Positions 33,195-62,758 of a stretch of 64,000 nucleotides of DNA are shown piece after piece. Below the pieces are notes generated by a model. That model made no database searches and was not told the origin of the DNA. It saw nothing but the letters and a program-made list of their open reading frames with translations. Origin of the DNA: a phage. Positions within the stretch are counted from its first letter, which is position 1, and each line of letters begins with the position of its first letter. The stretch lies in NCBI GenBank assembly GCA_017864995.1, contig GCA_017864995.1_4097.1; one strand, 5' to 3'. Both the position numbers and the translations under genes were made by a program.

Positions 33195-33446
33195 ATGAAA
33201 GTACTGACAGAACTAGAAATGTATCATAGATTTAATAAGTACTATCATTTACTTAAGCCTATACAGAGAATTAAATGTCCATTTGAAGAGAAACAGGTTT
33301 TAATCTATGAGCACAAGTTCTTTGTATCATTAGGTACAGATCAACAAGAGTACTATTTGACGTTGTACTTGATTACATTAATAGATTTCATTCACTATAA
33401 AACCACACAATCTAAACAAGCTAAGAAAGAGCAATATGAAAACTAA
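33195..33446 (+). CDS. Fam2 small protein
   Basis: VSLGTDQQEYYL; start MKVLTELEMY (track 33162). Confidence 0.5.
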   Translation: MKVLTELEMYHRFNKYYHLLKPIQRIKCPFEEKQVLIYEHKFFVSLGTDQQEYYLTLYLITLIDFIHYKTTQSKQAKKEQYEN

Positions 33447-33774
33447 TATAAAACTCAAGGTATATAAATCATTTGCAAGTACATACATCAAATGCCATAC
33501 ATGTAACTCTGTAATGGACTACAAAGGTAAGCCATTTGCACTTACTTATGATAATACAAGAGGTTTTTATATATCTTTTGCTGATTACAAATATAACATA
33601 TACGAACACATTGACATTGAAGATTTAAGTACTTTATCCGAAGAGGAATACTTTCAAGAATCATTAGTATGGGATTTGGAGTTTCCTATGCCATTAGTAC
33701 ATAAGATGATAGTACTAATAAAAGAAACTAAACCTGTACCTAATGGTTATGAAGAACACATTATTGAGTATTAA
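33436..33774 (+). CDS. Fam3 protein (E-E-x-Y-F-Q motif family)
   Basis: motif LSEEEYFQESLVWD; N-term MKTNIKLKVY. Confidence 0.6.
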   Translation: MKTNIKLKVYKSFASTYIKCHTCNSVMDYKGKPFALTYDNTRGFYISFADYKYNIYEHIDIEDLSTLSEEEYFQESLVWDLEFPMPLVHKMIVLIKETKPVPNGYEEHIIEY

Positions 33775-33788
33775 TATATAAGGTAACT

Positions 33789-34130
33789 ATGAAAACTAAT
33801 ATACAACTCAATGTATACAGTTCAGAAGAACATACATATATCAAATGTAGTCTATGTAAAGATGTAATGGACTACAAAGGTAAGCCATTCACAATTACCT
33901 ATGATTCTGATGTTAATGATTTATATATATCATTTCTTAATTACGAAAATAAAATATACAAGCACGTTGATATTAAAGATTTAAGTACTTTATCACCAGA
34001 GGAATACTTTCAGGAATCGTTAGTATGGGATTTGGAGTTTCCTATGTCATTAGTACATAAAATGGTAGTCCAAATGAAAGAAGCTAAACCAGAGTTTAAC
34101 GGTTATGAAGAACACACAATTGAGTATTAA
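33789..34130 (+). CDS. Fam3 protein
   Basis: SPEEYFQESLVWD; close paralog of 33436. Confidence 0.6.
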   Translation: MKTNIQLNVYSSEEHTYIKCSLCKDVMDYKGKPFTITYDSDVNDLYISFLNYENKIYKHVDIKDLSTLSPEEYFQESLVWDLEFPMSLVHKMVVQMKEAKPEFNGYEEHTIEY

Positions 34131-34133
34131 ACC

Positions 34134-34349
34134 ATGAAAAGATTATCATACGAAGATTATCGCAAGATTCGCGGTATGTTGCGACCAGAAATTCAAAGAA
34201 TTAATTCACTTCCTATATCTAATGCAGAATGTTCAGTACTGAAAGATGAGTTAATATTAAAACACACAGTAGGAACTAACTATCAAGCTGATAGTGTTCG
34301 ATATCTAATTTGGGGATTAATATGCATAATAAAGTCCAGACAAGCTTGA
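34134..34349 (+). CDS. Fam2 small protein (dispersed copy)
   Basis: HTVGTNYQADSV. Confidence 0.5.
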   Translation: MKRLSYEDYRKIRGMLRPEIQRINSLPISNAECSVLKDELILKHTVGTNYQADSVRYLIWGLICIIKSRQA

Positions 34350-34374
34350 CAGTACTTTTCATTACTGATATAGT
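34346..34374 (+). promoter_or_regulatory. promoter TTGACA-17-TGaTATAGT
   Basis: extended -10; upstream of 34404 ORF. Confidence 0.5.
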
Positions 34375-34403
34375 ACCTGTACGTTAATCATGGGGTAAAA
34401 ATT

Positions 34404-34649
34404 ATGTTGAATTTTTTAAATTTCCTTATCGTCTTGTGTATTGTTCTTGGGATTGCACCATTTGTATTGTATTTCATGGAGTCCGATGAAATGCAAAAGA
34501 TGAATTGCACAAGGACAGGACAGAGTAGAGAAGAGACGATTCTTATGCCTGTTACCGTTATTGTTAATAATATGCCCATTACAAACATGGTCCCTACCCT
34601 AACGACAACGTACCAGTACTCTTGTACAGACGGAGAGAGGTGGAGATAA
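34404..34649 (+). CDS. small membrane protein (N-terminal TM helix)
   Basis: MLNFLNFLIVLCIVLGIAPFVLYF hydrophobic segment; own promoter. Confidence 0.45.
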   Translation: MLNFLNFLIVLCIVLGIAPFVLYFMESDEMQKMNCTRTGQSREETILMPVTVIVNNMPITNMVPTLTTTYQYSCTDGERWR

Positions 34650-34972
34650 TGCGTAAGTTCAATTGTATTGTACGTAAGAATTCATGTTACATTGTAGTAG
34701 CTGATTTTAATACAGGTTCTGGGTTGAAGATATTTGAGTACAGAAAATGCAATAATTCTTTTCATTGGAAATTGGGTGCAAGAAAAGCAAAAACAATTTC
34801 AGTACCGAATTTATGTTCTATCTCTGAAGAAGAAGAGTTTCAGTACTTGTTAGTACATGATGATTCTTTAGGATTTACATTCGAAGACATGAAGGAAGTA
34901 CAAAAGCAGATGATTGCACATTGTCATCTTCCAAAGAATTTTGTTCAACACGTATGTGAATTCTACATATAA
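34649..34972 (+). CDS. Fam3 protein
   Basis: SEEEEFQYLLVHDD; start MRKFNCIV after RBS GAGAGAGGTGGAG (track 34622). Confidence 0.55.
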   Translation: MRKFNCIVRKNSCYIVVADFNTGSGLKIFEYRKCNNSFHWKLGARKAKTISVPNLCSISEEEEFQYLLVHDDSLGFTFEDMKEVQKQMIAHCHLPKNFVQHVCEFYI

Positions 34973-34981: not shown

Positions 34982-35293
34982 ATGAAATTTAATATAGCAA
35001 AAACATCGAGTATATGTATTTTTGGTTATGCAGAAGAGTTAGGTGATATTGACATTCTTTTGTACAAAAAAGATGGTGTTATGCATTTCAAGTACCAGGA
35101 TGAAGAGGCAGACAATTATCTTTTACCTAATTTAGTACAAATGCAGGAAGAGGAATTATTCCAGTACAGCTTAATATACGACATTGATATTTGCACGATG
35201 CCAGTATTAATTAGTATTCAAAAAGTGATGCTCGATATGTATGATAAGCTAATACAAGGTATGTCAGGGAGGATCATTGAAATCGATATATAA
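34982..35293 (+). CDS. Fam3 protein
   Basis: QEEELFQYSLIYD. Confidence 0.55.
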   Translation: MKFNIAKTSSICIFGYAEELGDIDILLYKKDGVMHFKYQDEEADNYLLPNLVQMQEEELFQYSLIYDIDICTMPVLISIQKVMLDMYDKLIQGMSGRIIEIDI

Positions 35294-35312
35294 GAATATA
35301 CCTAATGCATAT

Positions 35313-35489
35313 ATGTTGAAGTACAAAGAGTTTATTAAAGATGTATATGTAGATCCTTTCAATATAAAATTATCAGAGTTCGAAGTATCATTTTATCTAG
35401 GGACAATAGTACAGGATCAATACGTTGATAATCTAATAAGGTGCATGAAAAAGGAGATACAATGCAGACCCAAAGGTATAAAAAGATAG
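35313..35489 (+). CDS. Fam2-like small protein
   Basis: FYLGTIVQDQYV; track start 35277 is TTG, ATG at 35313 preferred. Confidence 0.4.
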   Translation: MLKYKEFIKDVYVDPFNIKLSEFEVSFYLGTIVQDQYVDNLIRCMKKEIQCRPKGIKR

Positions 35490-35725
35490 ATGCTTATTTG
35501 TATGCTTCAAAGTACAGGGATTTTTGTTTACGAGGGGGAGAGGAAGATTTCGCTCTGAGATTATCTGAATTTAATATGTTATTTTATCTTGGTACAAAAG
35601 AACAAGAAGATACAGTACAGAAATTTCTCAATCATCTTGTACAAAAAATTAATATGCAAATTTTGATGCATAAGTTACAGAATGAGATAAATGAATATGA
35701 ATCCAGAAATAGTTCAGGATCTTAA
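35462..35725 (+). CDS. Fam2-like small protein
   Basis: FYLGTKEQEDTV; start MQTQRYKK after RBS AAGGAGA (track 35441 is GTG). Confidence 0.45.
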   Translation: MQTQRYKKIDAYLYASKYRDFCLRGGEEDFALRLSEFNMLFYLGTKEQEDTVQKFLNHLVQKINMQILMHKLQNEINEYESRNSSGS

Positions 35726-36434: not shown

Positions 36435-36995
36435 ATGAATGATATTGAGTTATTGGTACATAAGATTTGCACAATATCGTTAGTGCTGAACAATGCGAAT
36501 ACAGTACAGAGTTCCCTTTTAAGAATTAATAAAGTTGGGAGTAGTTTATATTTGGAAGTAAAAGCTGGTTTTGCAGGACAGTACAATGATAAAATCAAAG
36601 AAGAAGTTAAGGGAAATGAAGATGCTTACATTGAGGTTTGTGCAACAGTTGGTTCAAATCCAATTTCAGTATCACCTTTAATGCGAAATGAAAATCCAGA
36701 ATTTGATTCCAGTTTTGAAGGTTATTTGTGGTACAATTATGGTGATGATTATTTTATATATCAGAATTCCAAAACGGATTATAGTGAAGAAGGTATAAAA
36801 TTCATTGATCCTTACAATGAAGCAGAAGTATTTCAGACATCCCTAATATACAATACAAATCAAATGAAGTATCTTATGTTGTTTAGTACAATGCATTTGA
36901 ATCCATTGAAAGATAATTTAAAATTTTTCATTCGTTTAGAATTAGTTGATATTGCTTATGATCTTTTAATGCAAGGATATAGTTATGAAGTATAA
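36435..36995 (+). CDS. Fam3 protein
   Basis: NEAEVFQTSLIYN; C-term DLLMQGYSYEV shared with 37072 gene. Confidence 0.6.
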   Translation: MNDIELLVHKICTISLVLNNANTVQSSLLRINKVGSSLYLEVKAGFAGQYNDKIKEEVKGNEDAYIEVCATVGSNPISVSPLMRNENPEFDSSFEGYLWYNYGDDYFIYQNSKTDYSEEGIKFIDPYNEAEVFQTSLIYNTNQMKYLMLFSTMHLNPLKDNLKFFIRLELVDIAYDLLMQGYSYEV

Positions 36996-37065
36996 AATGC
37001 TTTATACAAAAGATATGATTTATGTTGAATTAGAAGACAATGACGATGTATCCATCAATAGGTAA
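36985..37065 (+). pseudogene. truncated remnant of MKYKxLYT..IYVELE-type Fam3 gene
   Basis: 26-aa ORF MKYKMLYTKDMIYVELEDNDD matches N-termini of 37568 and 37885 genes, then stops. Confidence 0.35.
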
Positions 37066-37071: not shown

Positions 37072-37578
37072 ATGAATGAGATAGAATTATTAGCACACAA
37101 GATTAGTACAGTAATGCTTATGCTCAAGAATAATCATTCTATGCATAAGTACATTTTTATAGGTGATTTACGCATAGAAGATAGATATGATAAATTATCG
37201 TTTATGTTTAAAGATGAAAGTAATGCAAAAGTTTGTTTTGCAGCATTTGCCCAAGGCAATCCAGAACAAGCATCTCCTGTTATATACGAAAATAGTGAAG
37301 GGTATTTGTGGGTCAACACAAACGATTATTTCTTTTATGTTTTGAAACAAGATGATGAAGTAGAAGCACGAATTGATTTAATTGATATTAGTTCAGATTG
37401 TAGTGCTGAATTATTTCAGAAATCGTTATTATACAGTCCTCGTCAAATACATTATCTAAAGTTATTCAGTTCATTGTACGCGAATCCTTTAATTAAGGGT
37501 TTTAAATTTTATATCAAAATTCCGCACCTTTCAAACGTTTATGATTTATTAATGCAAGGATATAGTTATGAAGTATAA
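37072..37578 (+). CDS. Fam3 protein
   Basis: SAELFQKSLLYS; paralog of 36435. Confidence 0.6.
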   Translation: MNEIELLAHKISTVMLMLKNNHSMHKYIFIGDLRIEDRYDKLSFMFKDESNAKVCFAAFAQGNPEQASPVIYENSEGYLWVNTNDYFFYVLKQDDEVEARIDLIDISSDCSAELFQKSLLYSPRQIHYLKLFSSLYANPLIKGFKFYIKIPHLSNVYDLLMQGYSYEV

Positions 37579-37879
37579 AATTCTTTATACATTAACATTA
37601 ATATATGTAGAATTAGAATCCGATTCAGATGCATGGAATTTGGTTAAAGAGGTCGATACCAATCAATGGTACATGGCAAATTTAGACGAACATGTTGTTA
37701 CGGATTATTTTATAGATTTTAATACATTATCTGAAGAAGAATTTTTCCAAATGCAATTGGTGGTTGACATGTACGGACATGACATGGTAACATTAAGAAA
37801 TATACAGAAAGTCGTTAATGAATTCCAAAGCAAGAAAGATTATGAGGTAGGAGCGTATTATGACATCGACGTACAGTGA
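37568..37879 (+). CDS. Fam3 protein
   Basis: SEEEFFQMQLVVD; N-term MKYKILYTLTLIYVELE. Confidence 0.6.
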   Translation: MKYKILYTLTLIYVELESDSDAWNLVKEVDTNQWYMANLDEHVVTDYFIDFNTLSEEEFFQMQLVVDMYGHDMVTLRNIQKVVNEFQSKKDYEVGAYYDIDVQ

Positions 37880-37884
37880 AAGCA

Positions 37885-38226
37885 ATGAGTACAATAGTTA
37901 TGATATATAAAATGCTTTATACAGTATCGGGGATATATGTAGAATTAGAACCCGATTATCCAGATGGATGGAATTTTATTAAACGCTCCGAAAGAAATAC
38001 ATGGCACATGGCACATTTGGATAATGACGTAATATTAGACAATTTTGTGGATTTTAATACATTATCAGAAGAAGAATTCTTCCAAATGCAATGTGTGCTT
38101 GACACAAAAGGATTTGATGTGCTATTATTAAAGAATATACAGAAAGCTGTTAACGAATTAATATCCAATGACGAGTTAGGCAAAGTGAGGCTGTTCCATG
38201 ATCTCGAAGTACAGTACCAGCAATGA
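37885..38226 (+). CDS. Fam3 protein
   Basis: SEEEFFQMQCVLD; paralog of 37568; track start 37876 is GTG, ATG 37885 or 37900 likely. Confidence 0.55.
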   Translation: MSTIVMIYKMLYTVSGIYVELEPDYPDGWNFIKRSERNTWHMAHLDNDVILDNFVDFNTLSEEEFFQMQCVLDTKGFDVLLLKNIQKAVNELISNDELGKVRLFHDLEVQYQQ

Positions 38227-38767
38227 AATTCAGTACACCTACGCTAATGCAATCCTAATGGGACAAAAGTTAGCTTGTATTGTTGCAGCCTTATATAATG
38301 TACAAAAAGCAGCACATAATAAAAAACCATATACAAGAATCATTAACGCATTCATGGGGTTTAAACCATCTGATTTTGATTCACATATTGCGTGCACAAG
38401 TTATTTTGACAAACGATTCAATACACCTGATACCCCAAATGCCCGTAGTGTTATTAGTCTTTTACAGTTTAATCCAACACCAGTTATATCAAAGAATGAT
38501 TTGGATTACACTTGGTACAATTCAAATCAAGATTCATTTTATTCTAATGATCAATCGATTGAATATAATAAAATTAAATCAGAGGAAGCATTTTTTCAGG
38601 AATCATTATTTACACATGAACGTTCTTTGTTTTATAGTGTTATGTTGAGTACAGTATACAATAGTCCATTACACAAGAATAACAAAATTAATTTCAGTTT
38701 TTGTGCTTATGCGATTGATGGTGTTTATGAGTGCTTAATGGAGGTATTGAGTTATGAAGCTGAATAA
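38198..38767 (+). CDS. Fam3 protein
   Basis: SEEAFFQESLFTHE. Confidence 0.55.
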   Translation: MISKYSTSNEIQYTYANAILMGQKLACIVAALYNVQKAAHNKKPYTRIINAFMGFKPSDFDSHIACTSYFDKRFNTPDTPNARSVISLLQFNPTPVISKNDLDYTWYNSNQDSFYSNDQSIEYNKIKSEEAFFQESLFTHERSLFYSVMLSTVYNSPLHKNNKINFSFCAYAIDGVYECLMEVLSYEAE

Positions 38768-39095
38768 TACATTTGATATTAAGAAGTTAAGAGAATGGTT
38801 TTATAGTATTGAAATTGAAGCCATTCCTTATCATAGATATGAACAAAGTGATTTACAAAGTATTGATATCAGAGAGTTGTACAAATATTATCAGAGTGCA
38901 TTAGAGATGCATAAGTTATTTTTGAGTACAAATTTCATTCTAAATTACAATTTTGAGGAATTTAATAATTATAATTTAGTACAGAAATATGTAGTAGCAA
39001 AGTACATGTACAATCAAGGTATCAAAGGTTGCATCGAATTCAATACCGTTCTTATTTTAGTTGAGGTAATTTTATGCACCGCATGTCTGATTTAG
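38754..39095 (+). CDS. hypothetical protein (113 aa)
   Basis: MKLNNTFDIKKL; no clear motif. Confidence 0.5.
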   Translation: MKLNNTFDIKKLREWFYSIEIEAIPYHRYEQSDLQSIDIRELYKYYQSALEMHKLFLSTNFILNYNFEEFNNYNLVQKYVVAKYMYNQGIKGCIEFNTVLILVEVILCTACLI

Positions 39096-39571
39096 AGTTC
39101 AGTTTAGATGCAGCCTTTAAATTTGTTCACAAAATAGAAACAATATATCGTACATTATGTGCAATAACATCAGTATCAAAAGAGTTTGATGTTGGTGAAA
39201 GGTATCAGGTGTGGAATAATTCATTTTATAATAAAGAACATTCTGCGACGGCATTTTATATTTTAGCATTTAATCCCAGCAATTGTTACCCAGAGAAGCA
39301 TGAACGTTATCCAAATGACGACATGTGGTTTGAGTACAAAGAAGATGCTGATATGTCGTCAATTGTAGTTCCTGATGATTTTAATGCACAAGATTTAACA
39401 GAAGAGTGGTGGTTCCAGCAGAATTTAGTACATGATGATATTGATTTATTTTTCTATATTGCATTTAAAATGCTTTATCACAACAATATAGTTAAAGAAA
39501 GTTTATCGTTTTCATGTCTATATATTGATGATTTGTACAATGAAATTCAAATAAACATGCCTGTATCGTAA
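39074..39571 (+). CDS. Fam3 protein
   Basis: TEEWWFQQNLVHDD. Confidence 0.55.
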   Translation: MHRMSDLEFSLDAAFKFVHKIETIYRTLCAITSVSKEFDVGERYQVWNNSFYNKEHSATAFYILAFNPSNCYPEKHERYPNDDMWFEYKEDADMSSIVVPDDFNAQDLTEEWWFQQNLVHDDIDLFFYIAFKMLYHNNIVKESLSFSCLYIDDLYNEIQINMPVS

Positions 39572-39589
39572 GATATGGGCTTTTTTTGT

Positions 39590-39618
39590 TTGACACGAGT
39601 ACAAATGCATGGTACAAT
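39590..39618 (+). promoter_or_regulatory. promoter TTGACA-17-TACAAT (internal to Fam3 array)
   Basis: follows G/C segment plus T-run (possible terminator) at 39575-39588. Confidence 0.5.
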
Positions 39619-39643
39619 GTGTAATCATTTTAAGGAGATACCT

Positions 39644-40219
39644 ATGGAAAATTTTAAAATACCAGATGATTTCAATTCAGTACAAGAGATTGTACACAAG
39701 GTTCATTATATTTTTAATGAATTAATTATTGCCAATTCATCCGGTATGCAAATTGAGTTAAAGGATATTGATAGAGAAGAAGTTTTTTTGGGTTCCCCAA
39801 ATTCAATCATTCCTTTTTATGGACAAGATCGTTTATGGTTCATGAGAGATATCCCAATTGACAAATACAAAATACAAACAAAATCAGATTTTTATTCTAT
39901 TTTTGAATATCTTAATATTACATTACAAACACAAGATATAAGTGCAATAAATGCAATGAGTGCAGAGGAATATTTTCAGTACAGTACATTGCATAGTCCA
40001 GAAGAAATCTTTGTTGTTATGCTCGTTGCAAAATTGAGTACAGTTGATTTTGGGACGTACCCAAATAAATCATTCAAGATTATTATTCCTGCATTCGTCG
40101 ATCTTTATGATTTCATTGTGCACAAGAAAGAAAGTACAGTGTACGATATGTATCGTTCAAATATCAGTTTATTTGCATCAAGTGCAGTAAATGCAGTGAT
40201 TACAGGGGAATTAAAATGA
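39644..40219 (+). CDS. Fam3 protein
   Basis: SAEEYFQYSTLHSPEE; start MENFKIPDD after RBS TAAGGAGA (track 39575 lies in promoter). Confidence 0.6.
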   Translation: MENFKIPDDFNSVQEIVHKVHYIFNELIIANSSGMQIELKDIDREEVFLGSPNSIIPFYGQDRLWFMRDIPIDKYKIQTKSDFYSIFEYLNITLQTQDISAINAMSAEEYFQYSTLHSPEEIFVVMLVAKLSTVDFGTYPNKSFKIIIPAFVDLYDFIVHKKESTVYDMYRSNISLFASSAVNAVITGELK

Positions 40220-40824
40220 ACATAGATCAATTAATGAAGTACAGTACAAATACAATTCCAGTGCTAAGTAAAGCATTAGATGCATTCAATGCTAAGTACC
40301 CTGAAGGTTCAGAGTTAAATATTCCTTTTACCACAGAAGGGATTGTTGATACGTACATTGTAAACATTAGTAGTACAGGTATTGTTTTGAAGCAAAAGTA
40401 CGGCGAAAGTGAATATTATGGATTGAAGCTGGATAATATTTCAGGAGAGAAGACACCTTATGAGTTTTGGGTTCCGAATAACATTGAGTCATGGAAAACA
40501 AATATTAATAAGAGAGACGAAAGAAATTTACCTCTTGTACAAAATAATGAAAAAAGAATTGACGTATTTTATTATTACAGTACAGCCCAGTTTCCAGAAG
40601 AGATTTATTTAAATTCAGAGGTGCATGAAGATATTGAATCATTTTTCTTTCAGTTATCATTGGTACAGGATATCATGCCTGTGCAAATGTTCAGGGATGA
40701 AATAAATTTAGCGAAAGAGATTTCGGATATGTTACCTGAATTTAGTGTTCTTTATGGTAGTAGAGCTTTACCTGAAAATGTTTACAAAGAATTTATTTCC
40801 ATTGTTAAAGGGTTGAATATATAA
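40216..40824 (+). CDS. Fam3 protein
   Basis: ESFFFQLSLVQD. Confidence 0.55.
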   Translation: MNIDQLMKYSTNTIPVLSKALDAFNAKYPEGSELNIPFTTEGIVDTYIVNISSTGIVLKQKYGESEYYGLKLDNISGEKTPYEFWVPNNIESWKTNINKRDERNLPLVQNNEKRIDVFYYYSTAQFPEEIYLNSEVHEDIESFFFQLSLVQDIMPVQMFRDEINLAKEISDMLPEFSVLYGSRALPENVYKEFISIVKGLNI

Positions 40825-40825
40825 T

Positions 40826-41020
40826 ATGACCGCCTATGATATCAAACAAAGGCATACGAAGTTTGATTTGTTCACATACCAATTCCACAATGATATAGTG
40901 AATTTTAACATCAATGCGTCCTTGCATCCTACATCACAAGATGATTTTGACAACAGAGTGCTTAACATAGTGGTGCTTTTGTGTTATAATCATTTCAGTG
41001 AATATTTTAACACAAGATAA
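40826..41020 (+). CDS. hypothetical small protein (64 aa)
   Basis: MTAYDIKQRHTK; no motif. Confidence 0.4.
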   Translation: MTAYDIKQRHTKFDLFTYQFHNDIVNFNINASLHPTSQDDFDNRVLNIVVLLCYNHFSEYFNTR

Positions 41021-41033
41021 GGTTGAGGCACAC

Positions 41034-41552: not shown

Positions 41553-41893
41553 GTAGATTTTCAGTTTATATAGTAAACGTCAGTAAAGATGGTAGTTTAA
41601 TTGAATTTGATGTAGTTGATAACAATGATAATTCATATGGTATTAAGGTACAGGACAATGATGTACAGTTCAGTACAAGGACAAATTTTGAGAATCCAGT
41701 CCAAGTTCCGCATTTCATAGAAGATGAAGCTGCACGATTCCAACACGAAACGGCCTTTGATAATTTAGCGATGCATATTATTATGCAACAGAGTTTAGTT
41801 CAATTGCTTCAGGTATTCAGACAAAATATATATGTACATGAAGTGTCGATTAATGGCATTCAAAGTTCCGTTTTATTCGGTACAAATATGTAA
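41549..41893 (+). CDS. Fam3 protein
   Basis: DEAARFQHETAFDN. Confidence 0.5.
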   Translation: MSRFSVYIVNVSKDGSLIEFDVVDNNDNSYGIKVQDNDVQFSTRTNFENPVQVPHFIEDEAARFQHETAFDNLAMHIIMQQSLVQLLQVFRQNIYVHEVSINGIQSSVLFGTNM

Positions 41894-41903
41894 GGAAAGT
41901 ACA

Positions 41904-44312: not shown

Positions 44313-44321
44313 GATTATAAA

Positions 44322-44813: not shown

Positions 44814-44814
44814 A

Positions 44815-51125: not shown

Positions 51126-51158
51126 CTCTTTATATTAATTGTAAAGGGTTATATCACA

Positions 51159-54951: not shown

Positions 54952-54972
54952 AGACCCTTATGGGTCTTTTTG
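54952..54972 (+). terminator. rho-independent terminator
   Basis: AAGACCC-ttat-GGGTCTT then TTTTGTGTTT. Confidence 0.65.
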
Positions 54973-54982
54973 TGTTTAGTGC

Positions 54983-55011
54983 TTTACAGGAGCATTCAGG
55001 TGTGTTATAAT
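54983..55011 (+). promoter_or_regulatory. promoter TTTACA-17-TGtTATAAT
   Basis: extended -10; RBS CAGGAGAAG then ATG 55039. Confidence 0.5.
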
Positions 55012-55038: not shown

Positions 55039-55602
55039 ATGAGTACTGAATTAATTAAAGAAATCACATTGTTGGTAAAGCATTGTTTTAAGTTCATTGA
55101 TGATAATGGTTCACGCCAGTACATTAAAGTTAATGAGAAATATAACATTAACGTCCTAAAGAATGAAACCGTTAACAGTTATGCAAACATTGAGTTAGAT
55201 GTTGAGGACAAATACACAGCATTACACATCATTTCGTCCGGCGATAGAAAACAAGATTATCGTTCTACATTTTATGATGATAGTGTTACTGTTGGTTATA
55301 AATTTCATAAAAATAAAATTGCTTATAAGAATACATACACACATGAAGTAATTGAAGAGTACAATTATAAAATTAAAAAAGACGAGTACGATGTACTTTT
55401 ATTCAATGCGAACCTCATACACAACGCTGGAACTGTTCGCAATCTTATGTTAGCATATGAAATTCCAAAGATTATAGAAAGAAATGAATTGATAATCTTT
55501 AAAACTATATTAAAATTCAGTACGGAAGAATTAGAAGATCTAGTACTGGCTCTTAAGACGTTCATCAATGAACATGTACCTGTTAAATTAGAGGACTTAT
55601 AA
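55039..55602 (+). CDS. Fam3-like protein (degenerate motif)
   Basis: MSTELIKEITLL; KDEYDVLLFNANLIHN in motif position. Confidence 0.45.
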   Translation: MSTELIKEITLLVKHCFKFIDDNGSRQYIKVNEKYNINVLKNETVNSYANIELDVEDKYTALHIISSGDRKQDYRSTFYDDSVTVGYKFHKNKIAYKNTYTHEVIEEYNYKIKKDEYDVLLFNANLIHNAGTVRNLMLAYEIPKIIERNELIIFKTILKFSTEELEDLVLALKTFINEHVPVKLEDL

Positions 55603-56186
55603 TGCAAGCTGAACACATTCAAATTATGAAATTGATGCATGACATTGCAGAACTATCTGAAAAGCACAACATTACTGAACATGAGCCTATTGGAAATTAT
55701 CGTCTTAAAGTTGAATGCAAATCACCATATCGTTTTGGTTCAGTAGTACTGGAGTCTTATAAAGTTTACGATTATGGAACGACGAAAAAAGGTTCATGGG
55801 ATACTATGGCAATGTATATCCGCACATCAAGGCATAGTGAGCGAATCGGTTCCATTACCCCAAACATGATATTTGTCAATGCTTTACATGAAGATATTAA
55901 TCGAATTGTCGAATCCAATTTTGATGACGTAGAGAATGATACATATTTGGAAATTCCACCAGAACTAGATCAATGTGAAGACATTCGCGAAGGATACATT
56001 TTTCAGAGATCAGTACTTGACAACTTCAAGGAGTTTGAGTACATGATGCTTTGCTATGAAACTGCAAAAGCTATTGACACTGGTGAATTGGTAATGTATA
56101 GTAAGTTCATTAACTGTGAATCCGATACATTAAAAGAGCTACACACGGCAATCAAAAACATCAAGGATACATATGAACGCTTATAG
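55602..56186 (+). CDS. Fam3 protein
   Basis: REGYIFQRSVLDNFKE. Confidence 0.5.
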   Translation: MQAEHIQIMKLMHDIAELSEKHNITEHEPIGNYRLKVECKSPYRFGSVVLESYKVYDYGTTKKGSWDTMAMYIRTSRHSERIGSITPNMIFVNALHEDINRIVESNFDDVENDTYLEIPPELDQCEDIREGYIFQRSVLDNFKEFEYMMLCYETAKAIDTGELVMYSKFINCESDTLKELHTAIKNIKDTYERL

Positions 56187-56751
56187 TTATATGACAGCCC
56201 GACACCAACAGCTATATGATATCAGTACAAAGATGCTACACATTGTTGGTAGTGCCAAAGAAATTAACAAACATTACCTCATCCGTGATGTGTCATTTTC
56301 ATCTAAATGTATGTCCAAAGAATATTACGATCACGGTATTCTTACTATTTCTGGTGCCAGGAATATTTGTATTGTAAAAAATAATAGTAAAAGTAATGAA
56401 GAGTGCGAGATTAGATCCGATATCCAAATTAATGATGATGGAAGTTTTTCACACCATCCATTTCATATTAGTACTGTTGGTGTTTTATATAATATTAAAG
56501 TACTATTCGGTGATAAAGAGTATGAGTTAAAAGCTATCAATCCAGAATCAAGTACAGTTGATGAAGAACTGTTTCAGATGAGCACCGTTATACCGGAAGA
56601 GGTTCTTAGTACTGTTGTTTTTTGTAGTTTAATTTATCACACATACAAAAAGAACCAGTTCGATTTCCACATTTTAGGAACGTACATCTTCAATACTTTG
56701 AATGTTGATCGTTTAAAAGCATTAAATGCAGCAATGGACAAGGTGCTATAA
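56173..56751 (+). CDS. Fam3 protein
   Basis: VDEELFQMSTVIPEE. Confidence 0.55.
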   Translation: MNAYSYMTARHQQLYDISTKMLHIVGSAKEINKHYLIRDVSFSSKCMSKEYYDHGILTISGARNICIVKNNSKSNEECEIRSDIQINDDGSFSHHPFHISTVGVLYNIKVLFGDKEYELKAINPESSTVDEELFQMSTVIPEEVLSTVVFCSLIYHTYKKNQFDFHILGTYIFNTLNVDRLKALNAAMDKVL

Positions 56752-57179
56752 TGACAAGAGATGAATGCTTATACATATGGGATATAATTGAAACTACACT
56801 TTCAAATCCAGAAAATTATAAAACAAAAAAAAGACAACGACACAAAATATGGATAGATTTGTTCGTTGAGGGCACACACGCAGTGACTATTTGGGATTCA
56901 CCGAGGGCATCATCATCTACTCTGTTGGACAATGAATGCATTGATTGCATTAATTCCAATTTTCATCTCCACGGTACTACATATTTCGGCACATTTCTGG
57001 ATATTGAAAGTAAAGATGATATTGATTCACTTGCTTTACAATACGGAGTACTGTATGATACTAAATTAATTTACGATTTAGTACTAGCTTCTTATGTGTA
57101 TAAATTAATGATGAAATACAATCACATTTCTGTATCAGTTTATACTAAGGATATTCTTTCATTAAGAGACAAAACATGA
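56751..57179 (+). CDS. Fam3-like protein (degenerate motif)
   Basis: IDSLALQYGVLYDTK. Confidence 0.45.
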   Translation: MTRDECLYIWDIIETTLSNPENYKTKKRQRHKIWIDLFVEGTHAVTIWDSPRASSSTLLDNECIDCINSNFHLHGTTYFGTFLDIESKDDIDSLALQYGVLYDTKLIYDLVLASYVYKLMMKYNHISVSVYTKDILSLRDKT

Positions 57180-57682
57180 GTTTATTAAATGCACGAGAAT
57201 TAGTTGAGATGTATGAGATCTTATCTTCATATAAAAATTCCCCAAAAGATGTAATTCTAAACAAAAAGTTCCATGTCAATGTTGATCATATGAAAAATAT
57301 AGATATGATTTCTTTAGTGGAAAGTCGTAAATCGGGTATTGAGCGTGATATCATGCGTTTGATTTATATTACCAAACCATCATATACTAATGATAGTTCA
57401 ATTAGTAATGAGACGTTTTTGTACACTCCTTATACTGATTGTACTTTAGTTTCAATGTCTAATCAGAAACAAGATACTATCCAATTCATCAATACCAGTA
57501 CTGATAACATTGAAGAAAATGAATTCCAAAACAATACATTAAGTTCATGTAGTAGTGTTATAACCTTTATGTCATATCTGTGGTCAATCAAATCAAATGC
57601 AATTGTATATAGTTCTAATTACACACAAGATTGTATTGTTGAATCATTTAAAGTTCTAAAGGAATACTATGAAAATAACTAA
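57176..57682 (+). CDS. Fam3 protein
   Basis: IEENEFQNNTLSSCS. Confidence 0.5.
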   Translation: MSLLNARELVEMYEILSSYKNSPKDVILNKKFHVNVDHMKNIDMISLVESRKSGIERDIMRLIYITKPSYTNDSSISNETFLYTPYTDCTLVSMSNQKQDTIQFINTSTDNIEENEFQNNTLSSCSSVITFMSYLWSIKSNAIVYSSNYTQDCIVESFKVLKEYYENN

Positions 57683-58250
57683 TGATTTTATTAGAAGCTT
57701 AGTGCACCCTATGCTTGGTGTTATGAAAAAACTACAGACTCTACCTGAAGACAACGATTACAAGTTTAATCGTTTTGATTCGGATGTGTTTTGTATTGAA
57801 ATGGAAATTAATAACAATCGTTATTTTCATTTAAAATTCAAAGAATCGTCGAGTTCGCACTACAACTTTGACATGAATTTTAAAATAAGCAATGATATTG
57901 AAGAAAACGCAATATCAAATCATATTAGCAGAAATGGTTTCATGCATAGAACTAATATGTTCAATAATAAAAACAGTATTATATCTAAATGGAATCATCA
58001 ATTCACTAAAATTTGTGATATTGATTGCAGTACATTTGGTGAAGAACAATACTTTCAGTTAAGTACAATACATGAACTTCCACCATATGATTGTGTAAAA
58101 ACATGGTTTGATATTCATAATATAATTGATGATGCAATCGTACTTCCATTTGGGTTGTCAATATCATATACTGCACCTAAAACGTTTGTTTTTACTGAAG
58201 ATATGATTATGAAAAAGATATGGGCGATGATGCCACTTATGCTTGATTAA
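57669..58250 (+). CDS. Fam3 protein
   Basis: GEEQYFQLSTIHELP. Confidence 0.55.
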   Translation: MKITNDFIRSLVHPMLGVMKKLQTLPEDNDYKFNRFDSDVFCIEMEINNNRYFHLKFKESSSSHYNFDMNFKISNDIEENAISNHISRNGFMHRTNMFNNKNSIISKWNHQFTKICDIDCSTFGEEQYFQLSTIHELPPYDCVKTWFDIHNIIDDAIVLPFGLSISYTAPKTFVFTEDMIMKKIWAMMPLMLD

Positions 58251-58261: not shown

Positions 58262-58813
58262 ATGAATCAAAGTCATGATCTTTTTAAATTATGTGCATCC
58301 AAAGATGTGGAAGGATGGGCAGATAAAATCAATACAATTATCAACCGTTATCTTGGCTTCTGTGCACGATCACGAAGTGAAGGTTCAATGCGTTTCCAAA
58401 TAACCATGACAATCGATGGTGTTACGATTTATGTCAACGAAGAGCGTCTTGGTATTAATCTCTATGATAGTTGTGTCTTTGCTATTCACCAGAAAATGGG
58501 GGCAGGTTGGGGTTGTAATAATATGAACACCAATGCTTTTTTCTGGGTAGGTCATAGCAACACAGTACTTGATCCTTCAACTAAATCAAACCTATTAGAT
58601 GATAATATCGTATATGATTTAGCTTACTCTGAAGAACAACATTTTCAGTTAAGTACATTGCATAATTTAGTCAAATATGAAGATTGTATCAAAGCATTAG
58701 AATTATGTCATTCACTTGAACTTAAAGAAAAATTGATACAAATTTACCCGTTGTTCTTCCATGAAGAAGTTCAATGCACTTTAGATCATATTTTATATGG
58801 GTACGACAAATGA
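58262..58813 (+). CDS. Fam3 protein
   Basis: SEEQHFQLSTLHNLV; paralog of 57669. Confidence 0.55.
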   Translation: MNQSHDLFKLCASKDVEGWADKINTIINRYLGFCARSRSEGSMRFQITMTIDGVTIYVNEERLGINLYDSCVFAIHQKMGAGWGCNNMNTNAFFWVGHSNTVLDPSTKSNLLDDNIVYDLAYSEEQHFQLSTLHNLVKYEDCIKALELCHSLELKEKLIQIYPLFFHEEVQCTLDHILYGYDK

Positions 58814-59412
58814 GAAAAAGTTATCAAGAAGCTATTGACCTAATTCGAGAAGTTATTAAGGTGGCTCCTGATGCGATAGCATTCAAGAAGTCCCTATATA
58901 AAAAGTATGGTCCCATGTCAAGTATGTGCTGTCAAAAGAAACGTAGTAAATTCACTACGCAGTACTGGCATGATTCTATTATCCTGAGTAATGAACATCA
59001 GCGTATTTTAACAATCGAATCAGTAGATAATCAATATGGTGAAGGAATGATTTGTGTTCCTGACTATGATGAAATTAATTTCAATTGTGGAGATTATGAG
59101 ACTACATTATTATTACACGAGGGTTACCCTGAAGGTGATGTAATGGCAGAGTATAACCCAAAAACCAAAATACTGAAACGTGGTATGCAGTTCAAAATCA
59201 ATAACAAAGATGATGTGGAAGCAGCACTAATGCAACTTAGTACTAGTGAACCTATCACTATTGATGTAGAAGAGTTATGGGGCATCATTTCAGTACTTAA
59301 TGAGTGTTATAAAATTAAATCATTACACAAGTACGCTATCATTTTACATACTAATTGTGCAATGATAAAATGCAAGAACATACAAGAGATGGCGGTTCCA
59401 GATGAACTTTAA
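58810..59412 (+). CDS. Fam3-like protein (degenerate motif)
   Basis: VEAALMQLSTSEPI; start MRKSYQEAI (track 58774). Confidence 0.45.
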   Translation: MRKSYQEAIDLIREVIKVAPDAIAFKKSLYKKYGPMSSMCCQKKRSKFTTQYWHDSIILSNEHQRILTIESVDNQYGEGMICVPDYDEINFNCGDYETTLLLHEGYPEGDVMAEYNPKTKILKRGMQFKINNKDDVEAALMQLSTSEPITIDVEELWGIISVLNECYKIKSLHKYAIILHTNCAMIKCKNIQEMAVPDEL

Positions 59413-59986
59413 AGAAATAGAAAGTAAAATTAAGTACTTTAAAGATATTAAAAAACTTTGGGAAAAGTATAAAATTGATTATCAATTCCAAGATGATGAT
59501 ACTGTTCAAAACATTGATATTAATATTCGTGTAAAGTTCAAGAATGGCAATTATGGCGAAGTTAAATTGAATGCTATTGGTGTATTCCTTAAGGATTATG
59601 ATGGTTCTTCACTCGCTCAATTCGATTTCACACCTGATCCTGATGATATGTTATTGAGTGAAGTCAATGCATATGACCTTGAGATGTTTAATGGTAAACC
59701 TTTACTATTCCGCTTATCAGATGAATGGGATGAGATTTACTACACATACAAAGATGGTGTGATTCGAGACGCAAATGATGAAGTAGTAAATGATATGGAA
59801 GAACGTCTATTTCAAGAATCATGTGTGTCATCGGAGTCATATACATATCAATATCTACTTGACATGTTCGATTTGTATAGTAAAATAGATTCAGAAATGA
59901 GTACATTGGGTATTCATTATCTTACAATCAACGACTTTGCACAACTTGAAACAGCGGTTAAAGCCCTGGTCAAAGTACTGAAATAG
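59402..59986 (+). CDS. Fam3 protein
   Basis: MEERLFQESCVSSES. Confidence 0.55.
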   Translation: MNFKEIESKIKYFKDIKKLWEKYKIDYQFQDDDTVQNIDINIRVKFKNGNYGEVKLNAIGVFLKDYDGSSLAQFDFTPDPDDMLLSEVNAYDLEMFNGKPLLFRLSDEWDEIYYTYKDGVIRDANDEVVNDMEERLFQESCVSSESYTYQYLLDMFDLYSKIDSEMSTLGIHYLTINDFAQLETAVKALVKVLK

Positions 59987-59995
59987 GAATGAATT

Positions 59996-60409
59996 ATGAA
60001 ACTGTATCATGCGAGTACTGTAAAAATTGATAACTTTTATATCCCGTATGGTGGCCTTCATATGGGAGGTAAACACAGTGCTTTAGAAGCTGCATTACGC
60101 AAGCTGAGAAGCCCACTGAACGTTGTTGACGCTGATACAGTATACTTGCATACCTTAGAAGTTGATGTTGATAACGTGCTTCTGTGGACGGATATGGGCA
60201 GTGACGACGAATGGCGTGGAGTGATTGAGTACTGCGAAATTAACGGCTATGATGCAGTTCAGTACAAAAACGATTACGAACCAGATACAGTTCCTAGCTA
60301 TATGATTTGGGATACGTCTAAGGTTCGCATTGTTGAAGTTGATGCTATGCACATGGATGACGCAGAAATGATCATCGAAGATTTCCTTGATGAATATGAA
60401 GGTGTATAA
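59996..60409 (+). CDS. hypothetical acidic protein (137 aa)
   Basis: MKLYHASTVKID; no FQ motif; higher GC than neighbours. Confidence 0.55.
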   Translation: MKLYHASTVKIDNFYIPYGGLHMGGKHSALEAALRKLRSPLNVVDADTVYLHTLEVDVDNVLLWTDMGSDDEWRGVIEYCEINGYDAVQYKNDYEPDTVPSYMIWDTSKVRIVEVDAMHMDDAEMIIEDFLDEYEGV

Positions 60410-60927
60410 TGATTGAACCTATGACAGTACTAGCACGTACTAAATTATTATTGAAGATTGCTGAAATATTCACTGTTCTTATGTACAATAATAAAGACAT
60501 AAATGACTTAGATATTAAGCAACCGTGGCAAATTACAAAGTTCACGGCGTTCCACCGATTGTCATATAATGGTGAAACTGTTCTTGATTTTAATCCAAAA
60601 GCCAAGTTCGTGAATTACGCTGCATTATATGGATGTAATGGTGGATTAACAAATGACTTCACTAAAATAAAAGTACAATCAGAATCATTAGAATTTAATG
60701 ACTTACTATATCCAGAATTTAAGTTAACTGAAGAATCACTATTTCAGTACTCACTAATTATAAAAGATGTATATGATCTTGAGTACTACAAAGAGTTAGT
60801 AGATATTTTTAAGAATACTCGACTTTCAAAAGATATTGTGATATTCTGGTATGTTGAGTATGTTACAGAGGAATTGCTTGAAGAATTTCTTCTAAATATG
60901 ACAGCAATCAAGGAGAAGTTATGTTAG
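60409..60927 (+). CDS. Fam3 protein
   Basis: TEESLFQYSLIIKD. Confidence 0.55.
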   Translation: MIEPMTVLARTKLLLKIAEIFTVLMYNNKDINDLDIKQPWQITKFTAFHRLSYNGETVLDFNPKAKFVNYAALYGCNGGLTNDFTKIKVQSESLEFNDLLYPEFKLTEESLFQYSLIIKDVYDLEYYKELVDIFKNTRLSKDIVIFWYVEYVTEELLEEFLLNMTAIKEKLC

Positions 60928-61394
60928 ACATTTTAGGAAACATCGATACAGCAAATTATTTTATTCAAGATGCACTGTTCAATACAGTACAGAAAGGGTT
61001 GGATGTACGATGTAATATCCATCAGGGAGATGGGTATTTTGTTGATATCACTGAAACACGCAAGAACGTGTTCAATTTAAACATTACCACATTGACACGT
61101 CAGAACATTGCACGTATTTTGGTTAATAAAGATGAAATAGTTCTTCGTTATAATTCCAAATTCTTGTTCACATACAAGAAGAAGACTGACATGTTCAGTA
61201 CTAATTTGTTTGATGAACCCTTCAATCTGGAAGACTTAGAAGCAACTTTCTTTACACAGAACACTATGCTGAAATTCAATGATGTTGAATTTTCATCAGA
61301 AGTAATGTCTGAAACACTACAAATGGTTAAGGTAGTATTCTATGCTTTTCAACAGTTTAACGAAGAACGAAACAAGGTTAACAACAACAGATGA
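60921..61394 (+). CDS. Fam3-like protein (degenerate motif)
   Basis: LEATFFTQNTMLKFN. Confidence 0.45.
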   Translation: MLDILGNIDTANYFIQDALFNTVQKGLDVRCNIHQGDGYFVDITETRKNVFNLNITTLTRQNIARILVNKDEIVLRYNSKFLFTYKKKTDMFSTNLFDEPFNLEDLEATFFTQNTMLKFNDVEFSSEVMSETLQMVKVVFYAFQQFNEERNKVNNNR

Positions 61395-61755
61395 ACTAAT
61401 CGCGGCGATGGAAGCCAATGAGAAATACTTCAATGGGATTCATTTTTTTAAAACGGATCTTAGTGAAAGTAAAGTACTATATGTGTATGGCTCCCAGTAC
61501 TGCATTGTTACAAAGCACCCCGATGCGATTTCACTAAAATTTAATACTTATTCAAAAAACTTCTTGACGATTAATAAAAGCAATGTTACTATGTCTGGTA
61601 TAGGGAATCAGGTTGTTGAGATTCCTTTGGACTCAATTGATTCTATTGAGTTCTTTCAATACGAGTGCTTAGGTGTTGATTTTGGTACTGTCAGTACTGA
61701 ATCTATGCGAACATTAATTAATTTACTTAAAGGTAAAGTTCATGCTTTTAACTAA
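61342..61755 (+). CDS. Fam3 protein
   Basis: DSIEFFQYECLGVDF; start uncertain. Confidence 0.45.
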   Translation: MLFNSLTKNETRLTTTDELIAAMEANEKYFNGIHFFKTDLSESKVLYVYGSQYCIVTKHPDAISLKFNTYSKNFLTINKSNVTMSGIGNQVVEIPLDSIDSIEFFQYECLGVDFGTVSTESMRTLINLLKGKVHAFN

Positions 61756-62242
61756 TTCGATGAAGTATTCATTTAAAATTATCAAAGAAATACTAAATGG
61801 ATCTAAAAATCATAGTGGGTCTTCCTTTACTAGTGACCAGATCCAACACAGTACAAAGGATTGTACTGTAATCTTTGGGTTACATAGTCTGCGTTTGACA
61901 ATAGTAAATAATATTGATAACACAGCAATTGTAATCACCCCATGTCATATTCAGAATGATACTGGTGTATACTTACACCACATGGGGACTGTATTCTACA
62001 TCTTCAATACTGAAGAAAACATTGTTAAAGAATACAACACACTCAATGTTGATGCAGGTGAGTTATTCCAATTGAGTACTGTCAATGATTGTAACTTCAG
62101 TGACAATGCAGAAGTACTTCCATTGTTTCTAAGTCTTCTCAATAACATGGAAAAACTAACCACTGCATACAACAAAAGTGACGTACCGCAAGCAGTATTG
62201 AATATCACCGAAGCAATGGAGAAATACAAAGCTGTGACCTAA
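61742..62242 (+). CDS. Fam3 protein
   Basis: DAGELFQLSTVNDCN. Confidence 0.55.
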   Translation: MLLTNSMKYSFKIIKEILNGSKNHSGSSFTSDQIQHSTKDCTVIFGLHSLRLTIVNNIDNTAIVITPCHIQNDTGVYLHHMGTVFYIFNTEENIVKEYNTLNVDAGELFQLSTVNDCNFSDNAEVLPLFLSLLNNMEKLTTAYNKSDVPQAVLNITEAMEKYKAVT

Positions 62243-62284
62243 TATATGTGCACATGGAGTGCCTTTGAAGATCAAGGATAGATC

Positions 62285-62758
62285 ATGGAGATTAAAACTG
62301 TTGAGAATGGAAAGATAGATGACATTTTAGAGTTGGACGCATTCAAAGTTCATGATATAATGTTCAATGTAAAGGACATAATTCAGTGCTTGTTTTTATG
62401 CAGTAAAACTATGCACGACTTCTTTCACAATCCAAATACTAATGTTTTCATACTAACAATCAGTACTAGTAATTCGTTTATCATGGGTATGCCTATGAGT
62501 ACAAATGACGAGTACATTGATTGTGTTATTCGTAACAATGATAATATTACCCCACAATCTGAAGTACGTAAGAAAAAGAATACATACACCATCAAAGATG
62601 ATAAAATCATGATGTGTTGTAGTAAAGGGTTTATTTTGGATAATTTTAAAGTGAAAGATAGTTATCATGATTTTAAAGTATCAGAGACACAAACTAATGT
62701 AGTTCTTTACGCAAGTGATATTGAAAGCCTAACAGTTAAAGATCCCGATTTGGAGTAA
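62285..62758 (+). CDS. hypothetical protein (157 aa)
   Basis: MEIKTVENGKID; no clear motif. Confidence 0.5.
   Translation: MEIKTVENGKIDDILELDAFKVHDIMFNVKDIIQCLFLCSKTMHDFFHNPNTNVFILTISTSNSFIMGMPMSTNDEYIDCVIRNNDNITPQSEVRKKKNTYTIKDDKIMMCCSKGFILDNFKVKDSYHDFKVSETQTNVVLYASDIESLTVKDPDLE

Follow-up and report, generated by a model that had tools for sequence, protein, structure and literature searches.

Introduction

Lineage-specific tandem expansion of small accessory proteins is already known for giant viruses, and among jumbo phages such tandem arrays of small-protein genes have been remarked on for 121Q and phage G (Hua et al., 2017; PMC5646251). Here we describe a comparable array in a 64,000-nucleotide (nt) stretch of phage DNA, contig GCA_017864995.1_4097.1 of assembly GCA_017864995.1, referred to below as the window. 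The window belongs to Asteriusvirus, the PBECO4/121Q/phAPEC6 group of 350-kb Escherichia coli jumbo myophages and thus the genus of 121Q itself, with 96-99% DNA identity to Asteriusvirus genomes by megablast. The array encodes dozens of paralogous small proteins that share a short Phe-Gln-containing helix, and we name them the FQ-helix family (FQ proteins). The published wording on the 121Q array fits a neighboring 31-member small-protein family (27493-33446) better than it fits the divergent FQ family, whose members are mostly 10-25% identical.

Other described expansions differ from the FQ family in fold or in fate. The ~35-copy expansion of phage G consists of zinc-ribbon proteins, which fold differently (Iyer et al., 2021; PMC7824862). 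The head and inner-body family of phiKZ-like phages (gp93/162/163, PF12699) also consists of multi-copy jumbo-phage paralogs, some of them dispensable, but its products are part of the virion, undergo processing by the head protease and are in part injected, whereas PF12699 matches no FQ protein and none was found in virions (PMC7247149).

With the DNA-mimic anti-restriction proteins Ocr and ArdA the FQ proteins have an acidic character in common (median isoelectric point (pI) 4.8, charge to -30); neither a sequence nor a fold match to Ocr or ArdA was found in them. The MGF110, MGF360 and MGF505 families of African swine fever virus (ASFV) and the Bcl-2-like and ankyrin families of poxviruses form terminal tandem arrays of variable copy number, with roles in host range or immune evasion. 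Like the FQ array, they lie in tandem beside a terminal repeat, vary in copy number and keep one fold under divergent sequence; the hosts and the folds are others, and the likeness is by analogy only. The pre-early region of T5 and the terminal redundancy of SPO1 are host-takeover modules in or beside terminal repeats, with small genes that sit behind strong host-type promoters at the genome end and read inward, as the FQ array does; their genes are unrelated to one another, unlike the dozens of paralogs found here. To our knowledge, polar DNA entry is not known for Asteriusvirus.

The genes of the array have been clustered before. In PHROGs every FQ member matches at least one of ~30 groups (phrog_9317, phrog_12674, phrog_13866, phrog_15629 and ~26 others; E down to 1e-121), all labeled as of unknown function, and the database records neither the unifying motif nor the common fold nor the superfamily relationship. 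For the 43 firm members, Pfam-A returned 17 different families, each matched by one member only (best E 0.003) and none credible; NCBIfam gave no match; and PADLOC gave three single matches with E above 1e-3, again nothing credible. A profile search against PDB sequences was also without a match. The literature searched holds no description of the family, only generic remarks on paralogs in RaK2 and CBB (22 paralogous open reading frames, ORFs, are reported for CBB; PMC5259590) and on the 121Q tandem arrays. An earlier note on this DNA, made from the letters and a list of ORFs, had known of no described family with the signature, and the curated-family and literature searches, with no characterized match, bear this out. 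What is new here, and apparently not described before, is the definition of the superfamily: its signature, its predicted fold without solved neighbors, its 43-copy size, its spread over several phage groups and its evolutionary mode.

Definition of the FQ-helix family

Throughout the interval 33436-62758 every long ORF lies on the + strand, tightly packed, with minus-strand ORFs nested inside; 49 of 68 gene junctions overlap, 11 of these as ATGA. Using a hidden Markov model (HMM) seeded on motif-centered segments and iterated within the window until convergence, we found 43 firm family members among the ~70 + strand ORFs, from 33436 to 62242 (E 6e-8 to 6e-22), and no match elsewhere in the window. 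Four further ORFs, designated like other genes below by their first position, are borderline: 57176 is a probable member (hhalign probability 54%), and 55602 (E 0.048), 41549 and 61342 are possible ones. When the long non-member ORFs of the array were compared by hhalign as candidate hidden members, only 57176 reached 54% and the others remained at control level. About 23 interspersed ORFs have no detectable relation to the family, and the last gene of the interval, 62285-62758, is a non-member conserved in other genera. The earlier note had described more than 60 paralogs, about 50 of them consecutive, across 33436-62758. A single family in a dense head-to-tail + strand array is indeed present, but the number was an overcount, the true tally being 43 firm and two to four possible members broken up by unrelated ORFs, and the final gene does not belong.

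The motif has the consensus [ST]-E-E-x-[YLF]-F-Q-x-S-[TL]-[VIL]-[YH]-[DN], with F-Q invariant in 43 of 43 members. A regular expression for its core, [FYLH][FYL]Q.[ST][LTVIM], matches 29 of 70 array ORFs but none of ~100 + strand ORFs in the first 33 kb; 500 residue shuffles gave 0.59 matching ORFs on average and never more than 5. A chance low-complexity match is thereby rejected (29 observed, 0.6 expected). The Phe is encoded by TTT in 24 copies and TTC in 19, the Gln by CAG in 27 and CAA in 16, and the Ser by AGY (18) as well as TCN; mean DNA identity between copies over the 39-nt motif window is 50%. Given this free codon variation and low DNA identity, selection acts on the peptide. Both the shared motif and its maintenance at the peptide level had been proposed from the sequence, as had sub-clusters of closer paralogs, which we find as pairs with 69% (33436/33789), 56% (44322/45725) and 54% (37568/37876) identity, and a truncated remnant, which is the 26-amino acid (aa) ORF 36985-37065, the N-terminal stub of a short-form member (MKYKMLYTKDMIYVELEDND...).

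Long forms from the window, phAPEC6, RaK2 and Munch were aligned together with database representatives (168 sequences). F and Q are invariant in 165 of 165 long forms of this pooled four-lineage alignment, and E-E and S nearly so. All other conserved columns are hydrophobic with helical or strand periodicity, save one small Ala in the N-terminal helix. The sequence S/T-E-E-E, where the helix starts, looks like a classical N-capping box; a purely structural reading leaves only the invariant Gln without an obvious explanation.

AlphaFold2, run with the 43 paralogs as the alignment, was used to model one long and one short member. The long member, 44322-44813, gave a single domain (mean predicted local distance difference test score, pLDDT, 86.1; predicted template modeling score, pTM, 0.81) with an N-terminal helix at residues 3-21 and a C-terminal helix. 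The short member, 43597-43956 (pLDDT 88.5, pTM 0.82), has five strands, the motif helix at residues 66-75, a helix at 84-100 and a strand at 109-113. Both models are compact alpha+beta structures in which an antiparallel sheet of ~5 strands is followed by the short motif helix, a long amphipathic helix and one more strand, and in both the motif region is predicted with the highest confidence (pLDDT above 90). Long forms have in common a conserved amphipathic N-terminal helix, to which an optional C-terminal helix is added. The models thus indicate that the FQ family is one fold with optional terminal helices, not a C-terminal module on unrelated N-termini. A common fold around the motif, as the earlier note had supposed, is present in both models; its picture of largely unrelated N-terminal parts joined to a common C-terminal module is wrong for the long forms, which share the N-terminal helix and the whole fold.

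FQ proteins are 100-215 aa long, with a median net charge of -9 (minimum -30, 45725) and no hydrophobic segment; their median pI of 4.8 compares with 8.0 for the remaining + strand ORFs of the first 33 kb. They are soluble and mostly acidic, and most likely cytoplasmic.

Distribution and evolution

The profile search of wider protein space that the earlier note had proposed, here covering 1.84 billion representative proteins, retrieved 110 clusters (50% identity) at E up to 1e-3. In 109 of the 110, the proteins are 65-215 aa long and carry the module at the C-terminal side with an intact [ST]EE..FQ.S[TL]; the remaining one, P0127, is a repeat protein of 773 aa without relation to the family. 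About 70 clusters are less than 70% identical to any protein of the window, phAPEC6 or RaK2. Enterobacterial jumbo phages of three groups or more (Asteriusvirus, Alcyoneusvirus and the unclassified Munch group) have retained the family under purifying selection, as have uncultured relatives. Copy numbers are 43 in the window, 42 in the orthologous region of phAPEC6, at least 29 in Klebsiella phage RaK2 (ORF363-439) and at least 19 in Salmonella phage Munch (genes 054-080); dam lies a few genes downstream of the end of the array in phAPEC6, RaK2 and Munch. An uncultured 17.5-kb contig (L007 of Logan SRR33442307, 24.7% GC) has the neighboring small-protein family first and then 17 FQ proteins, a RaK2-like gene order. 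A locus search with an FQ sub-alignment retrieved RaK2 and 121Q only, and the distant representative P0120 had no relative in phage isolates or IMG/VR. Relatives infecting Pseudomonas, Cronobacter and Pectobacterium gave no BLAST match, their genomes not having been scanned with the HMM. Many database copies (P0003, P0006, P0011, P0014 and others) are labeled Escherichia coli and lie on 347-357 kb contigs that are whole Asteriusvirus genomes; the occurrence of such genomes inside E. coli isolate assemblies is either contamination or a carrier state.

Gene order at the 3´ end of the array is kept between the window and Munch (59996, 60921, 61742 and 62285 correspond to m31608, m33206, m34083 and m34615), at an average nucleotide identity (ANI) of ~29% between these genera (PMC13070987). 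The 5´ two-thirds hold lineage-specific duplicates: the pairs 33436/33789, 36435/37072 and 37568/37876 each correspond to a single phAPEC6 gene, and 46945 has no ortholog there. BLAST detects no more than 58 of the 903 paralog pairs, so most duplications are old. Orthologs of the window and phAPEC6 are 40% to 100% identical, and their synonymous divergence (dS) runs from 0.016 to ~3 between adjacent genes, a mosaic best explained by gene-by-gene replacement from a diverged pool. Among isolates, gene 51159 occurs as two discrete allele classes, 88-99% and ~57% identical.

The ratio of nonsynonymous to synonymous divergence (dN/dS) of orthologs has a median of 0.26, and all member pairs are well below 1. 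Pooled over 37 pairs, it is 0.16 for the motif, 0.22 for the following helix, 0.29 for the upstream variable N-terminal part and 0.27 for the C-terminus. Because dN/dS is below 1 in every region, each copy, its variable part included, is individually maintained. Every copy is under purifying selection, and the size and content of the family change through tandem duplication, through loss and through the replacement of alleles gene by gene. The birth and death of genes put forward in the earlier note is thus seen in the duplicates absent from phAPEC6, the remnant and the differing copy numbers of RaK2 and Munch. Its term "diversifying", if taken as positive selection, does not agree with these ratios; the variety looks like old paralogy plus allele replacement.

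Genome position, promoters and virion content

By megablast, the array region shares 98-99% identity with phages EC.P1 and Ecwhy_1 and 97% with fEgEco12. Direct terminal repeats of 20,993 bp have been verified experimentally for fEgEco12 (PMC13070987). Window positions 3500-8500 map to fEgEco12 351047-355663 and 44612-52000 to 38834-46029; therefore the terminal repeat corresponds to ~6.2-27.2 kb of the window. The array (33.4-62.8 kb) starts ~6 kb past the left 21-kb repeat and thus lies ~27-57 kb from the left physical end. Its genes read inward, and it takes up ~8% of the 350-kb genome.

In the repeat part there are 11 perfect TTGACA-16/17-TATAAT promoters, each on the + strand, and promoter-like sites number 103, compared with 68.7 +/- 9 in shuffles. 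Such richness would mark the region as one that host RNA polymerase transcribes, and early expression was proposed for the equivalent region by the authors of the CBB genome (PMC5259590). Within the array, sigma-70-like sites occur at 34346, 39590, 40962, 51096 and 54983, in the rare intergenic gaps, and these few promoters together with three terminators (39559, 54950 and 62870) split it into a handful of long operons. The three internal promoters (39590, 51096, 54983) and the terminator near 54952 listed in the earlier note are all present, the terminator at 54950-54969. As separate features, the repeat (6200-27200) contains a recurring TTGCAA-16-TATAAT variant in at least 10 copies and a 28-nt hairpin, consensus AAAGGGATTGACTCCGGTCAGTCCCTTT, in four copies (two identical, two variants) at 16241, 19902, 23169 and 25923, the stem of which holds a -35-like TTGACT.

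In purified phAPEC6 virions, 62 proteins were identified by mass spectrometry, none of them between gp347 and gp549 (PMC7247149, Table 1), and the orthologous array comprises about gp402c-gp466c. Array orthologs being absent from this proteome, FQ products are most likely intracellular and non-packaged. The absence of any gp348-gp548 protein among the 62 contradicts the packaged or injected effectors that had been suggested for the array.

Possible functions of the FQ proteins

We suggest, tentatively and with slightly less than even confidence, that the FQ proteins are early, non-packaged, host-directed binders, each copy with its own target, that serve in takeover or in the neutralization of defenses. 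Host takeover or anti-defense would be the most plausible function, and terminal multigene families of large eukaryotic viruses work in this way. In this model, host RNA polymerase would start at a few sigma-70-type promoters within the operons and also read on into them from the promoter-rich terminal repeat, such that the proteins are made early in infection. The variable sheet and loop surface of each paralog would bind a different host protein, and the outcome would be host takeover or neutralized defense systems. The conserved helix would act as the keystone of the fold, and possibly as a shared docking patch too.

Several points weigh against this proposal. No experiment or homology links any member to a host target or defense system. 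All copies have the conserved polar patch (E-E, Q, S), which might point to a single shared ligand instead of many targets. The early timing is deduced from promoter consensus, position and orientation, not from transcript data, and the total of promoter-like sites in the array is not above that of shuffled sequence, such that only single strong sites in gaps stand out. The absence from virions rests on one proteome of 62 proteins, in which low-copy components could be missed. Finally, gene-wide positive selection might be expected of a family in an arms race, and ortholog dN/dS gave no sign of it.

Should the copies indeed be binders directed at the host, the array would amount to a ready catalog of inhibitors for proteins or defense systems of E. 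coli, Klebsiella and Salmonella. It would then help to explain the broad host ranges of phages that are candidates for therapy, and would be a source of new reagents. Independent of function, ~8% of a 350-kb phage genome is given over to one family that curated databases leave unnamed and whose predicted fold has no solved match, and the array is a concrete example of jumbo-phage genome growth by duplication with the copies then retained.

The polar patch is also the starting point for the strongest alternative, which we nevertheless consider rather unlikely: E-E-x-x-F-Q-x-S docks one common partner, and the variable surface brings differing substrates to it. The partner would be either a conserved protein of the phage or a host hub, for instance a protease, RNA polymerase or the replisome. 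The motif residues E, E, Q and S are the only conserved polar residues in the 165 long forms of four lineages, an invariant Q is unusual for a purely structural position, and the motif has the lowest dN/dS (0.16). The non-family genes 59996, 60921 and 62285, kept inside the array across genera, could be such partners. Yet the N-capping box and the core packing of F, [TL] and [VIL] explain most of the motif structurally, and no partner has been identified.

The host-directed binders and a common docking site could also be combined. In this more speculative picture, to which we give a low probability, the array would be the phage counterpart of the poxvirus and ASFV families, with ~45 binders on one fold not seen before, each acting on a different defense or housekeeping protein, and the E-E/F-Q/S patch recruiting a common host machine, for example a protease; the copies would then be targeting adaptors that can be interchanged.

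We think it improbable that the paralogs instead join through the conserved helix into a heteromeric intracellular structure for replication or for assembly of the large virion. In favor of it, the operons co-transcribe and translationally couple many genes for a single fold, and the hydrophobic face is conserved. However, members are not in virions (PMC7247149), strongly acidic proteins would repel each other, and copy number and gene content vary among close relatives and genera, which is unusual for a stoichiometric machine.

Similarly doubtful is the idea that tandem duplicates are kept mainly to fill an enlarged capsid, with little individual function. This follows from the ratchet proposed by Hua et al. 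(2017), who saw arrays of more than 30 similar genes in tandem in 121Q and read them as expansion by duplication (PMC5646251), and the ~8% share of the genome would fit it. Mere filler is difficult to reconcile with dN/dS well below 1 in all ortholog pairs, variable parts included, with a 3´ gene order kept between genera at ~29% ANI (PMC13070987), or with paralogs that are mostly 10-25% identical and hence old and individually retained.

The two remaining explanations concern the motif as a recognition site, and we give both very little credence. Packaged and injected effectors like those of phiKZ, which has paralogous head-protein families (PMC12676376), might carry the motif as a maturation-protease site of the tobacco etch virus (TEV) type (E-x-x-Y-x-Q followed by S or G), and a few copies do read EEGYFQGS (47384). 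But no ortholog is among the 62 phAPEC6 virion proteins, there is no match to PF12699 or any other Pfam family, the residue after Q is variable (E/Y/Q/L/N/M, with G in a few copies) and S comes two positions after Q. Since a TEV/3C-type site has G or S directly after Q in an accessible linker and the motif here is helical, within a confidently folded core, we rejected it. A short linear motif for the host sliding clamp, whose binding consensus is QL[SD]LF, was rejected as well, because the likeness of Q-x-S-L-[VI]-[FYW] in copies such as QESLVF and QQSLIF is superficial: the consensus here is F-Q-x-S-[LT]-[VIL]-[YH], 15 of 43 copies have T at position +4, H or N frequently replaces the aromatic at +6, the invariant F before Q is not required by the clamp motif, and the segment is an internal folded helix and turn, not a disordered tail.

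Gene-by-gene description of the array

All features of the array described here are on the + strand, and E values are those of the family HMM. The array opens with four short forms. The first, 33436-33774 (112 aa, SEEEYFQESLVWD; E 1.3e-15), is 69% identical to the next, 33789-34130 (113 aa; E 3.4e-15); a single phAPEC6 gene, a3995, is the best match of both, and their duplication is therefore recent. They are followed by 34622-34972 (116 aa, EEEEFQYLLVHD; E 1.5e-13) and 34982-35293 (103 aa; E 2.3e-14). The long form 36435-36995 (186 aa; E 8.2e-16) and its paralog 37072-37578 (168 aa; E 4e-18) both end in LLMQGYSYEV and flank the remnant at 36985-37065, which matches the N-terminus of 37876-38226. 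The latter (116 aa; E 8.4e-13) is itself a short form, 54% identical to the one before it, 37568-37879 (103 aa; E 5.5e-12). Two long forms, 38198-38767 (189 aa; E 4.7e-15) and 39074-39571 (165 aa, TEEWWFQQNLVHD; E 1.8e-11), lead up to a first putative operon boundary at 39559-39618, where a terminator-like hairpin (39559-39580) precedes a sigma-70-like promoter (39590-39618, 11/12 plus TG).

Beyond this boundary lie the long forms 39575-40219 (214 aa; E 1.2e-13), 40216-40824 (202 aa; E 4.6e-10), 40998-41552 (184 aa; E 3.3e-9) and 41832-42458 (208 aa; E 1.1e-12), and then three short forms in a row, 43187-43600 (137 aa; E 1.3e-14), the modeled 43597-43956 (119 aa; E 4.1e-18) and 43953-44312 (119 aa; E 1e-15). 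The other modeled member, the long form 44322-44813 (163 aa), is the best HMM match (E 5.8e-22) and matches phrog_9317 with E 5e-64. It heads a run of long forms comprising 44815-45285 (156 aa; E 2.2e-16), 45282-45722 (146 aa; E 1.2e-15), 45725-46213 (162 aa, net charge -30; E 1.5e-19) and 46191-46634 (147 aa; E 4e-19). After the short form 46631-46945 (104 aa; E 1.1e-10) come the long form without a phAPEC6 ortholog, 46945-47394 (149 aa; E 3.3e-10; best phAPEC6 match 26% identical), and three more, 47384-47830 (148 aa, TEEGYFQGSTVYN; E 1.9e-14), 47827-48363 (178 aa; E 7.8e-11) and 48676-49272 (198 aa; E 3.5e-13).

Two short forms, 49871-50230 (119 aa; E 4.4e-16) and 50220-50558 (112 aa; E 4.1e-10), and the long form 50509-51099 (196 aa; E 1.6e-12) precede a perfect sigma-70 consensus promoter at 51096-51125 (TTGACA-18-TATAAT with TG; 12/12), located in the 59-nt gap before 51159. 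That gene, 51159-51638 (159 aa; E 7.8e-18), is the long form with two ortholog allele classes. It is followed by the long form 51635-52117 (160 aa; E 8e-15), the short forms 52110-52472 (120 aa; E 2e-12) and 52456-52869 (137 aa; E 2.3e-13), and the long forms 52857-53351 (164 aa; E 2e-16), 53874-54440 (188 aa; E 3.1e-10) and 54367-54951 (194 aa; E 9.2e-14). A second boundary, 54950-55011, consists of an intrinsic-terminator-like hairpin (54950-54969) and a promoter-like site (54983-55011, 11/12 plus TG).

ORF 55602-56186 (194 aa, EGYIFQRSVLDN) is a possible divergent member with an HMM E of 0.048 and an hhalign probability of only 8%, and 57176-57682 (168 aa, ENEFQNNTLSS) is a probable one, its hhalign match to the long-form alignment having E 1e-4. 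Firm long forms are found at 56173-56751 (192 aa; E 7.2e-13), 57669-58250 (193 aa; E 2.5e-13), 58262-58813 (183 aa, EEQHFQLSTLHN; E 3.4e-9), 59402-59986 (194 aa; E 4.5e-9) and 60409-60927 (172 aa; E 5.9e-8). The last firm member, 61742-62242 (166 aa; E 3.6e-9), has a Munch member with the matching motif, m34083, in the same place, with DGGELFQFSTVHD there and DAGELFQLSTVND here. A terminator-like hairpin at 62870-62890, after the non-member gene 62285-62758, closes the operon.

Neighboring genes and other arrays

Three non-family genes, 59996-60409, 60921-61394 and 62285-62758, are those whose order is kept in Salmonella phage Munch; the product of 59996 starts with MKLYHASTVKIDNFYIPYGGLHMGG. 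Just past the array, 62926-63771 has homologs in RaK2-type Klebsiella phages. The products of 59996, 60921, 62285 and 62926 match PHROGs 11632, 15293, 16362 and 27741, all of unknown function, and have no Pfam match. No tRNA or Rfam family was found in the window.

A second paralog family consists of 31 small proteins of 60-95 aa (phrog_4148) with the core ...F[YF]LGT..Q.... It has 26 genes in an unbroken row at 27493-33446 and five inside the FQ array (34134-34349, 35277-35489, 35441-35725, 48341-48559 and 48537-48728). Elsewhere we counted 21 in phAPEC6, 12 in RaK2 and five on contig L007; the family is not in the Munch segment.

A third array, at 1287-6280 on the + strand just before the terminal repeat, contains ~25 ORFs of ~60 aa with C-termini such as ...VLKLISI or ...LIFKY, and its GC skew is negative despite the + strand genes. 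It is interrupted by a 219-aa protein (3287-3946) with LSDEEEFMYSTVIDN 40 residues before the C-terminus, which is FQ-like with the Gln lost. Compared with the FQ family its hhalign probability is only 6%, at the top of the controls, and it may be a degenerate distant relative at the other genome end. The only clear minus-strand gene in the window, 36-1202, encodes a 388-aa protein with RCC1-like glycine-rich repeats, which resembles the products annotated as "DNA condensation protein" found in the phAPEC6 virion (gp549 and gp551).

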